From a virus (taxonomy: Duplodnaviria; Caudoviricetes), in IMG/VR virus record IMGVR_UViG_3300033121_002354, positions 1 to 64,000 of that record: a stretch of DNA of 64,000 bases, one strand, 5' to 3'. The notes under the pieces are model-generated. The model worked only from the letters and a program-made list of their open reading frames with translations, did not search any database and was not told the DNA's origin. Of the stretch, positions 3,000-11,605 are shown piece by piece. Positions within the stretch are counted from its first letter, which is position 1; each line of letters starts with the position of its first letter. The position numbers and the translations under genes were made by a program.

Positions 3000-3300
3000 T
3001 ACTATAGACTGGGACGATTTCTCGGAAAGCTTGATTAATATGCAAAAAGAGAAAGAGCGACTTATGTGTATTCTTCCTAAGACTGATGAAGAAGCTGATA
3101 AAATTTTTGCAGAAAACATGTTCAACGAGATACATAACTGTTTTTATGATTTACGTGAAAAAATTGAGTATTATTCAAAACCATCTCATCCTCATATATC
3201 TGCAGCATTTTCTCCATTAGCACAAAAAATATACGGTATGATAATTGATTTTCAGAGAGAATTAAACAAGCTTTCATGGTTCAATGAGGATGGCAAATGA
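2992..3300 (+). CDS. Hypothetical protein
   Basis: 102 aa, overlaps neighbours by a few bases. Confidence 0.6.
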   Translation: MNDTIDWDDFSESLINMQKEKERLMCILPKTDEEADKIFAENMFNEIHNCFYDLREKIEYYSKPSHPHISAAFSPLAQKIYGMIIDFQRELNKLSWFNEDGK

Positions 3301-10193: not shown

Positions 10194-10281
10194 CTGCGGG
10201 AGTTGGAATCGAACCAACGTGGGAGACAAGCTCCGAACGGTTAACAGCCGTTTGCAGACTACCAACATCTGCGGTCCCGCA
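10194..10281 (-). tRNA. tRNA-Asn(GTT) with long variable arm
   Basis: TGCGGGA/TCCCGCA, G73; AACGG-CTGTTAA-CCGTT; V-arm GGAG-CTTGT-CTCC. Confidence 0.85.
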
Positions 10282-10664: not shown

Positions 10665-10692
10665 CGGGCACGAAAGGATTCGAACCTTTTGC
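10665..10692 (-). pseudogene. 3' fragment of split tRNA (probably Ser)
   Basis: AAAGG-TTCGAAT-CCTTT-CGTGCCC-G; acceptor strand pairs with GGGCATG at 11596-11602. Confidence 0.8.
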
Positions 10693-10702
10693 AAAAAAAA
10701 AA

Positions 10703-10791
10703 CGGCGTGAGAAGGATTCCAACCTTCAAATCACTTTTGTGATCCGTCGAATAGCAATCGACTTCCCCGCAGCAATGAGGACAGTCACGCC
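10703..10791 (-). tRNA. tRNA-Ser(GCT), divergent
   Basis: GGCGTGA/TCACGCC, G73; GTCGA-TTGCTAT-TCGAC; long V-arm GATCAC-AAAA-GTGATT; atypical D-arm and T-loop TTGGAAT. Confidence 0.8.
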
Positions 10792-11510
10792 ATATTGATT
10801 AGTTCTTTTTTTCCAAATGTTCCATTTTTCATGCCGTAAATTTCGTTTTTACGTAATACTATTAATTTGTGCGGAAAATACAACCATTTTGCTCTGTCCT
10901 TTTCTGTTGCATATCCTTTAACTTCTATATAGCATTCTAAATCTTTTATAAAAAAATCTGGAGTGTAAAATCTGTATTTCCCATCAAAATAGTAAATAAA
11001 TCTATTTTTGTTGCGTTGCCAATAAAACGCCCATTCATCTAAACTTTGTGCAGTTTTTAATTCCCATGTTCCATCTACCATTATTTTTCCTGCAATCTGG
11101 CTATTGTATTCTATTTTTTTGCACCTTCCAGCTTTAGGCAACCATCCTGCAGCATATCGCTTGTTTATTGACTCGCTAATTTTTTGACACCTTTCTTTTT
11201 CTTTTTCAGCAGTCTGTCCTAGACCAGAGCATCGACCGCGTAAAGCGGCAGACATTTTTTCTCTAATTTCTTTTGCTCTTTCTGATCCATAAGATTCTTC
11301 ATAACTCTTACCTTTGTTTGGTGGCTCTTTTCCTAAACGTGGTCTATGAGGCTCAGTTTTGTTTTTAAGGAATAGAGGAATATGCCCTTTTTTACTCTCA
11401 CTATCTTTTTTCCTTTTTGCAGGGCATTTATTTACATTTTCAGAGCAACAATAATTTCCATTTTTAAATTGGTGAATCGCGTCTAATCCACAACCATAAT
11501 TACACTTCAT
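10785..11510 (-). CDS. Putative homing endonuclease (NUMOD-like DNA-binding region plus PD-(D/E)XK domain)
   Basis: N-terminal CNYGCG...CCSE..CP; PPNKGKSYEESYG.ERAKEIREKMS; FYTPDFFI...YIEVKG. Confidence 0.75.
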   Translation of the reverse strand: MKCNYGCGLDAIHQFKNGNYCCSENVNKCPAKRKKDSESKKGHIPLFLKNKTEPHRPRLGKEPPNKGKSYEESYGSERAKEIREKMSAALRGRCSGLGQTAEKEKERCQKISESINKRYAAGWLPKAGRCKKIEYNSQIAGKIMVDGTWELKTAQSLDEWAFYWQRNKNRFIYYFDGKYRFYTPDFFIKDLECYIEVKGYATEKDRAKWLYFPHKLIVLRKNEIYGMKNGTFGKKELINMA

Positions 11511-11512
11511 TA

Positions 11513-11543
11513 GATTCTCCTAAAACATATTATTAGGAGAATC
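11513..11543 (-). promoter_or_regulatory. Hairpin sequestering the endonuclease RBS
   Basis: GATTCTCCTAA-9 nt-TTAGGAGAATC, perfect 11-bp stem ending 2 nt before ATG. Confidence 0.75.
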
Positions 11544-11567
11544 GTTTAAATATCCTGTATAAATATT

Positions 11568-11602
11568 CAAACTGCTGGTTTCACCCGCTCACCCACATGC
11601 CC
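11568..11602 (-). pseudogene. 5' fragment of split tRNA (probably Ser-GCT)
   Basis: GGGCATG-TG-GGT-GAGCGGGTGAA-ACC-A-GCAGT-TTG, breaking in the anticodon loop. Confidence 0.8.
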
Positions 11603-11605
11603 AAA

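Follow-up and report, generated by a model that had tools for sequence, protein, structure and literature searches.

An endonuclease gene linked to a tRNA gene lies within a broken tRNA-Ser of a large phage and suggests a widespread family of tRNA-breaking mobile genes

We analysed the first 64 kb (64,000 nucleotides, hereafter the window) of a 113-kb virus record from IMG/VR (IMGVR_UViG_3300033121_002354; Duplodnaviria, Caudoviricetes), where an endonuclease open reading frame (ORF) and a complete tRNA-Ser(GCT) gene were found between two pieces of another, broken tRNA-Ser gene. The GC content of the record is about 35% and its estimated completeness about 23%, from which a source phage of around half a megabase can be deduced. 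All 17 tRNA genes of the record are grouped in two arrays located between 8.4 and 11.9 kb. Along the minus strand, tRNA-Cys, tRNA-Tyr and tRNA-Ser(TGA) precede the broken gene; tRNA-Ser(TGA) ends at position 11605, the orphan 5' piece begins 3 bases past that end, and tRNA-Gly comes next after the orphan 3' piece. An earlier note on this DNA had described the two pieces, the full pairing of their acceptor strands and the overlap of the ORF stop codon with the intact tRNA gene, and each of these features was recovered at the place it had given (Table 1).

Table 1. Features of the split tRNA-Ser locus in the window, and orphan tRNA 5' pieces found beside related ORFs (loci designated by L and a number)
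Feature	Position or locus	Strand	Description
Orphan 5' piece, class II (Ser-type) tRNA	11568..11602	-	Acceptor strand, D-arm, 5' anticodon-stem strand, T32 T33 (G); dead remnant
Cassette leader, 57 nt	11511..11567	-	11-bp hairpin (11543-11513) burying the AGGAG ribosome-binding site before the ATG
Endonuclease ORF, 241 aa	10785..11510	-	N-terminal Cys4 cluster, NUMOD3-like basic repeats, C-terminal PD-(D/E)XK domain
Cassette tRNA-Ser(GCT), 91 nt	10702..10792	-	ARAGORN; intact class II cloverleaf, G73, non-canonical core
Cassette trailer	10691..10701	-	T-run (ten T's) then GC, between tRNA-Ser(GCT) and the 3' piece
Orphan 3' piece of broken tRNA	10665..10690	-	T-arm, 3' acceptor strand, G73
Ser orphan 5' pieces	window, L012-L016		End in ...TTG
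Ser orphan 5' pieces	L023, L027		End in ...TT
Asn orphan 5' pieces	L030, L034, L041, L042		End in ...CT
Phe orphan 5' pieces	L063, L072		End in ...CT
Phe orphan 5' piece	L066		Ends in ...TT
Met orphan 5' piece	L060		Ends in ...CTC

The 35-nt 5' piece reads GGGCATG / TG / GGT-GAGCGGGTGAA-ACC / A / GCAGT / TTG, with a D-stem of 3 bp closing the loop GAGCGGGTGAA, and A26 preceding GCAGT. In the 3' piece the T-arm AAAGG-TTCGAAT-CCTTT (10689-10673) is followed by CGTGCCC (10672-10666) and by G73 at 10665. The acceptor strands GGGCATG (11602-11596) and CGTGCCC pair at seven out of seven positions, through 6 Watson-Crick pairs and 1 G.U. Neither the 3' strand of the anticodon stem nor any part of the variable arm is present in the 3' piece, and for this reason the broken tRNA must be nonfunctional. 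The likelihood of such pieces arising by chance was estimated by alignment to 42 distinct phage tRNA-Ser genes, using 3000 random segments of the window as reference: the score of the 5' piece was equalled by 13 of them (empirical p ~0.004) and that of the 3' piece by 3 (empirical p ~0.001). The Rfam tRNA model produced a truncated match to the 3' piece (16.6 bits, E 0.075, model positions 43-71) and, in the same truncated search, none to the 5' piece. Similarly, an nhmmer search with a profile of the 42 phage tRNA-Ser genes, a method too insensitive for this purpose, missed the 5' piece and gave an E of 0.33 for the 3' piece. The strongest argument for the pieces being beyond chance is their recurrence in other phages, described below.

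The complete tRNA-Ser(GCT) gene starts within the ORF, its first bases being the last ORF codons, ATG GCG TGA. It displays a 7-bp acceptor stem, 5-bp anticodon and T stems, 7-nt loops and U33, both according to ARAGORN and in its minimum free energy fold, which is the class II cloverleaf itself (-35.6 kcal/mol, z -3.5), and it carries the serine identity features of a 7-bp variable-arm helix and G73. Its core is atypical, with C8, a D-loop devoid of GG and the T-loop TTGGAAT; a swapped 19:56 pair is possible. The gene obtained just 10.9 bits with the Rfam tRNA model (RF00005, gathering score 29), while its neighbours scored 50-71. Thus, the earlier description of this tRNA as very divergent proved right, even though its cloverleaf is clean. 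The hairpin of the leader has a centroid energy of -15.1 kcal/mol (z -3.3), and none of 200 shuffled sequences folded as well. A comparable hairpin adjoins the ATG of the homologous ORF in Escherichia phage PhaxI (see below), and together these signals support the idea of a gene that must be kept quiet. Inserts of the family often start with TAG followed by TATAAATA, which resembles the T4 late promoter consensus. Boxes similar to TATAAATA were seen 10-40 nt upstream of the ORF start in L030, L041, L060, L063, L066 and L072, which are Asn, Phe and Met loci, and in their place the window has ATATTTATACAGGATATTT, a motif common to L024.

The ORF was identified in the earlier note as a PD-(D/E)XK endonuclease, and that label is correct. 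The sole Pfam match of the window protein was to DUF7487, at 17.3 bits and under the family cutoff of 27, whereas PHROGs assigned it to phrog_15137 'endonuclease' (3.4e-14); no GIY-YIG match was obtained in Pfam or PHROGs. A search of 5.8 billion proteins returned 260 relatives, many of them around 50% identical and several encoded on contigs of about 500 kb. Some of these homologues carry precomputed PF05367, PF08722 or PF07460 annotations, the last of which (NUMOD3) is present on two. In an alignment of 30 homologues, E150, P184-D185, E196 and K198 are invariant, and a Cys4 cluster and repeats of the GKxxxNKGKTYEE type are conserved, although the window protein itself had no significant Pfam match. 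The family profile matches T7 endonuclease I (1m0d) with an E of 0.0025, and the E, PD and ExK residues align with the catalytic E, D, E and K of that enzyme. An AlphaFold2 model, with a pLDDT confidence score of 87.5 overall and above 95 over residues 131-241, shows a restriction-endonuclease-like alpha/beta fold at residues 128-241. Structural comparison with VIA-align gave Z scores of 8.3 for TnsA, 7.8 for the catalytic domain of I-Bth0305I (3r3p), 7.7 for Vsr, 5.6 for Hjc and 4.6 for I-Ssp6803I. Foldseek found no PDB entry at E <= 0.001, and the top ranks (best E 0.04) were occupied by PD-(D/E)XK nucleases. The predicted combination of DNA-binding modules with a nuclease is the domain build of free-standing homing endonucleases.

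The earlier note had called for a search for homologous endonucleases tied to tRNA-Ser, and the association turned out to be broader than that. We found 371 candidate IMG/VR stretches encoding a relative and, with a family alignment, fetched 80 loci, of which 78 had an ORF end that could be read; IMG/VR was also the only route by which the surroundings of the closest homologues (P0002-P0030) were covered. In 47 of the 78 loci the start of a tRNA gene on the same strand lies within -42 to +10 nt of the stop codon of the ORF, with tRNA-Asn(GTT) the most frequent (16 loci), followed by Ser(GCT) (13), Phe(GAA) (9), Leu(CAA) (4) and a few others. The ORF extends into the tRNA gene up to the first in-frame stop, which is why the overlaps have set lengths. 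In Ser(GCT) genes, the TAA within the anticodon loop CTGCTAA provides one such stop and accounts for the recurrent protein tails ending in NAADC. Three uncultured half-megabase phages also encode homologues, situated among tRNA-Ser or tRNA-Leu genes. The arrangement can also be recognised in RefSeq, where a coding sequence annotated as 'endonuclease' overlaps tRNA-Met by 10 nt in both Escherichia phage PhaxI and Vibrio phage Kuja, and another is separated by 45 nt from tRNA-Cys in Acinetobacter phage Apostate. When the linked isotypes were mapped onto a quick IQ-TREE maximum-likelihood tree of the proteins, 16 changes of isotype label were counted against a mean of 32.8 after shuffling, and none of 200 shuffles gave so low a number. 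Phe and Leu each form a single clade (support 100 and 99, respectively), and all the Ser(GCT) cases fall in one clade of 15 rows that includes the window. Hence, a given protein subfamily is associated with a single tRNA isotype.

Several individual loci deserve mention. In L006 (LR756508, 3001-3760) the family ORF contains an in-frame TGA (3139-3141), pointing either to recoding or to a broken gene, and a tRNA-Ser(GGA)-like cloverleaf that ARAGORN did not report overlaps the TAG stop codon; its acceptor stem (AGAGGGT/GCCCTCT) is that of the tRNA-Ser(CGA) upstream of the ORF. In L017 (1960-2990) a tRNA (GGTGTGT...ACACACC) is apparently split in the D-loop by the ORF, directly downstream of which no intact tRNA is called, and two more class II tRNA-like sequences missed by ARAGORN follow. 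Standard tRNA finders under-annotate the arrays of these phages. A group I intron match (52.7 bits, Rfam gathering score 50) was present close to the tRNA array in L023 (3559-3768).

Next to many of these ORFs there is debris of the kind seen in the window. A 5' tRNA fragment is frequently found just upstream of the ORF, it belongs to the same isotype as the intact downstream tRNA, and every such fragment ends right after nucleotide 33 (+/-1), within the anticodon loop. The earlier note had placed the break at the anticodon and had counted the terminal G of the window piece as position 34, a count that does not necessarily follow given the 33/34 break of the relatives: that G may be the wobble G34 (with GCT and GGA equally compatible) or may already belong to the insert as its first base. 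Orphan pieces from the 3' side are less common and have ragged ends (window, L012-L016, L019 and L017). The split layout of the window, that is, a 5' piece ending in TT(G), the ORF, tRNA-Ser(GCT) and a 3' piece, is also present in L012-L016 and L092-L098, with ORFs 51% identical to that of the window; relatives of the L012 and L016 types reproduce the whole layout plus an extra small ORF. Every viral-contig copy of the L012/L016-type 5' piece (7 out of 7) was in the split form. In L016 the halves retain complementary anticodon-stem strands (ACGGT/ACCGT), so that only about three loop nucleotides have gone; L012 and L096, like the window, have lost the 3' strand. The gene order Ser(TGA), orphan, ORF, Ser(GCT) is shared by L023 and the window. 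The orphans look canonical, and the ORF-linked tRNAs tend to be odd, with L042 and L060 as exceptions.

Within the Phe subfamily two kinds of linked tRNA-Phe can be distinguished, one in L058, L068 and L074 and the other in L063, L066 and L072, and upstream of the 'beta'-type loci the orphans represent 5' halves of the 'alpha' type, itself ORF-linked in other loci. This pattern could reflect reciprocal targeting between cassette variants, and the anticodon stems of L012 and L016 show a comparable criss-cross. Also in L016 (3099-3500), the first ~14 nt of tRNA-Ser(GGA) and the upstream GATT are duplicated before an ORF of ~93 codons that precedes the intact Ser(GGA), which looks like a second, different insertion at the 5' end of a tRNA gene; L012 has instead a lone T-arm/acceptor stub at ~3160-3190.

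A direct comparison of an occupied and an empty site was possible for the PhaxI subfamily, whose protein is 29% identical to that of the window (E 1e-13). Most Kutterviruses lack the ORF. When a 2-kb PhaxI query comprising the cassette and its flanks was compared with 327 related records, coverage reached 80% or more in just 6, and phages SFP10 and BSP101 have a single canonical, intact tRNA-Met(CAT) at this locus. Pairwise BLAST aligned SFP10 301-810 with PhaxI 796-1299 (93% identity) and SFP10 854-1348 with PhaxI 2108-2601 (97%). Between these blocks SFP10 has 43 nt, corresponding to tRNA nucleotides 28-70, and in their place PhaxI has 808 bp, which comprise a leader hairpin, the ORF, a tRNA-Met(CAT) unlike that of SFP10 and a trailer of 65 nt. 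PhaxI still retains nucleotides 1-27 of the old tRNA, an ACT matching nucleotides 31-33, and the last bases C72-A73-CCA. Presence of the element is thus sporadic among close relatives with conserved flanks in this subfamily, in which the empty and the occupied site carry the same anticodon, CAT, as the earlier note had anticipated for its own locus.

Taken together, these data make it probable, in our opinion, that the 877 bp at 10691-11567 are a mobile cassette, formed by an endonuclease gene placed head-to-tail with its own tRNA-Ser(GCT), that landed in a resident canonical tRNA-Ser and destroyed it. The target in the window would have been the canonical tRNA-Ser that once followed tRNA-Ser(TGA). 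The selfish cassette that breaks a tRNA gene and brings a substitute, as put forward in the earlier note, gains support from the ORF-tRNA fusion throughout the family, the shared break point and the PhaxI/SFP10 pair, and its recurrence in many phages suggests that such mobile genes, which would break a tRNA gene and supply another in its place, form a large and so far undescribed family.

Some observations weigh against this interpretation, or limit its reach. By similarity, the orphans of the window score alike with GCT, GGA and TGA types of tRNA-Ser and, the relatives being broken at nucleotide 33/34, the G at position "34" could belong to the insert, leaving the anticodon of the broken gene unreadable. 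A cassette-free relative of the phage in the window was not found in exact-pattern scans of viral contigs (0 for the 5' pattern and 0 for the 3' pattern), metagenome contigs (one unrelated high-GC contig, L099) or GTDB genomes (0 matches), so that homing into this particular site is presumed. A search for syntenic relatives with the adjacent 216-aa protein found none either. Among public sequencing runs, one contained the whole stretch and is probably its source, and a wastewater run and a bioreactor run contained near-identical bits of the flanking tRNAs only; no contig joined across the cassette, so these runs speak neither for nor against the interpretation. The cassette tRNA of L016 has the anticodon stem GCAGT of the L012 and window orphans, so its divergence is not obviously at the break, and recognition must involve more than the stem. 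About 30 of the 78 loci have no adjacent tRNA according to ARAGORN, though this program misses odd tRNAs, as in L006 and L017. Finally, the lower Rfam scores of ORF-adjacent tRNAs relative to their neighbours (medians of 46.5 and 58.0 bits, respectively; p 0.003, one-sided Mann-Whitney), which favour the interpretation, come from a comparison that pools isotypes and non-independent loci, and divergence is not universal, since fully canonical ORF-linked tRNAs exist in L042 (70.9 bits) and L060 (67.8 bits). As for L099, a high-GC soil metagenome contig, it contains at 1386-1430 the 5' half of a tRNA-Ser-like gene, identical in its D-arm to the window orphan, and no complete tRNA according to ARAGORN, and is probably an unrelated integration-site remnant.

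Among other explanations, the one that survives best, which we nevertheless consider unlikely, is that the endonuclease gene alone is mobile. Its home would be the spacer 5' of a resident, native tRNA-Ser(GCT), and the orphans would be scars, left either by illegitimate repair once another, related tRNA-Ser had been cut or by recombination between tRNA genes. The many loci in which ORF and tRNA come without an orphan (L018, L020, L021, L058, L068 and L074) would fit this scheme, as would the variability or absence of the orphan 3' pieces and the ORF-linked Ser(GCT) of L016, which has the acceptor stem and 3' flank of the neighbouring Ser(GGA), as a native paralogue would. However, the comparison of PhaxI and SFP10 revealed that the ORF is accompanied by a different tRNA-Met, which takes the place of the resident gene while the flanks on both sides are conserved. 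Furthermore, the tight ORF-tRNA overlap is kept across subfamilies and isotypes, and the protein clades track the isotype, both of which speak for the ORF and the tRNA travelling as one cassette.

We find it very improbable that the pieces are ordinary decay products of the tRNA array that only happen to surround the ORF, the latter being a resolvase-like nuclease that took no part in producing them. Megaphage arrays do contain tRNA fragments that have nothing to do with the ORF, such as the 14-nt 5' duplicate of Ser(GGA) in L016 and the T-arm/acceptor stub in L012 mentioned above, and T7 endonuclease I, to which the protein is closest in sequence among solved structures, is a junction resolvase; but the same break point appears beside the same ORF family in at least nine independent architectures and four isotypes, to which the PhaxI/SFP10 allele pair and the sporadic distribution must be added. 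Least credible of all is a functional tRNA whose exons are restored by splicing of a group I intron housing the endonuclease, for although the anticodon loop is the place of bacterial tRNA group I introns, one such intron encodes the PD-(D/E)XK homing endonuclease I-Ssp6803I and L016 keeps both anticodon-stem strands, the losses suffered by the 3' pieces of the window, L012 and L096 contradict it, and the ORF and complete tRNA fill the interval, leaving only ~57 nt and 11 nt for any ribozyme. ARAGORN, run with introns of up to 3000 nt, gave no split tRNA, and Rfam gave no intron family between 9900 and 12100 with E up to 10.

If the cassette interpretation is right, the following course of events can be proposed. 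The PD-(D/E)XK domain, with its zinc-finger and NUMOD-like modules, would recognise the canonical tRNA gene of one isotype in a cassette-free, co-infecting phage and would cut it at or next to anticodon-loop nucleotide 33/34; we infer this position from the shared 5' break point, for the conservation of which a double-strand cut there or immediately alongside is the best explanation. Repair of the break from the donor would then copy both the ORF and its tRNA. The left end, with its 3'-ending strand, would survive as the orphan 5' piece, and the right part would be resected or persist as a stub. The divergent tRNA of the cassette would take over decoding and would presumably be immune to cleavage. 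The endonuclease message, lying inside a tRNA operon, would probably be kept low by the hairpin that hides the ribosome-binding site and by RNase P cleavage at the 5' end of the tRNA, through which the ORF would lose its stop codon.

A bolder proposal, which we hold tentatively and judge to fall a little short of being evenly balanced, is that the whole family behaves as a natural 'cleave-and-rescue' drive, whose subfamilies each cut one isotype at 33/34 and install an uncuttable version, and that repeated rounds of this arms race could be a main source of the aberrant tRNAs and tRNA fragments in large-phage arrays. The long-arm tRNA-Asn, the odd tRNA-Phe and the tRNA-Ser of the window would be examples of such aberrant tRNAs. 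The window has a tRNA-Asn(GTT) of 88 nt (10194-10281, minus strand) with a long paired variable arm, which scored 28.9 bits, on the tRNA-Sec model. Other tRNA-Asn(GTT) genes of 81-85 nt are present in L033 (2503-2587), L043 (2386-2470), L054 (2221-2304) and L023 (2818-2898), and three of these long genes in the fetched loci lie directly behind an ORF of the endonuclease family. The tRNA-Asn(GTT) of the window may be a former cassette tRNA that has lost its endonuclease.

The family would add to the homing endonucleases a large and widespread group, with more than 370 IMG/VR loci and more than 260 protein clusters, whose members in cultured Kuttervirus, Kujavirus and T4-like phages carry no annotation beyond 'endonuclease'. 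Its lifestyle is distinctive in that a tRNA gene is broken and the linked spare pays for the damage, no intron or intein being needed. It would also explain orphan tRNA halves and non-canonical tRNAs in phage genomes that annotation pipelines miss or miscall. The family is a source of candidate isotype-specific DNA endonucleases against highly conserved sequences, for which the orphan pieces indicate the likely cleavage site, and it bears on the exchange and diversification of phage tRNA repertoires.

Full-text literature searches and the paper on the PhiSH19/Vi01 family (PMC3220722) yielded no description of the family or of its arrangement, and we rate the element as belonging among the free-standing homing endonucleases, as a variant not previously described in the literature found. 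The nearest precedent in its way of working is SegB of phage T4, a free-standing GIY-YIG homing endonuclease in the tRNA cluster of T-even phages that recognises the T-psi-C motif, and so can cut many tRNA genes, and drives the preferential inheritance of its own gene and of neighbouring tRNA genes (PMC2330249); its homologues are widely co-located with tRNAs and have no isotype preference (PMC13096335). As in the case of SegB, the gene studied here is a free-standing endonuclease gene inside a phage tRNA array. Unlike SegB, it belongs to a PD-(D/E)XK family, arranged head-to-tail with one tRNA and divided into isotype-specific subfamilies, with a junction at 33/34 and an old gene that is left broken and replaced. 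The analogy with SegB drawn in the earlier note is thus appropriate for the mode of working and fails for family membership, as the nuclease folds differ. In the intronless homing of T4 SegF, SegG and MobE, a conserved gene of the rival beside the insertion site is cut and the uncut allele of the donor is co-converted (PMC2988022; MobE, PMC2790892). There, a homologous allele replaces the target by homologous repair and leaves no debris, whereas the present family installs a non-homologous, odd isoacceptor gene and the 5' part of the target stays as an orphan. The halves of a broken gene flanking an endonuclease gene recall the 'fractured genes' and endonucleases of the I-Bth0305I type, where a host gene is likewise interrupted by an endonuclease gene and its two parts encode split inteins that rejoin the protein (PMC2677866; PMC3239194). 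The catalytic fold of I-Bth0305I is related and restriction-endonuclease-like, in line with the Z score given above, but the halves in the window are dead and a second, complete gene supplies the function. T7 endonuclease I (1m0d, 2pfj), the nearest solved sequence relative, with aligned catalytic residues, is a stand-alone junction resolvase of ~150 aa devoid of N-terminal DNA-binding modules, not mobile and with no link to tRNA. I-Ssp6803I, a PD-(D/E)XK homing endonuclease encoded in a group I intron of a cyanobacterial tRNA-fMet gene (PDB 2ost), shares with our family the superfamily and, presumably, the anticodon loop of a tRNA gene as target; in its case splicing of the intron restores the tRNA, whereas the window has no intron match, and the structural match is weak. 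The closest parallel in logic is found in the synthetic Cleave-and-Rescue (ClvR) drives, engineered Cas9-based systems for animals in which the nuclease destroying an essential gene is coupled to a recoded version of that gene which it leaves uncut. The element described here would follow the same logic as a natural, protein-guided system in phages.

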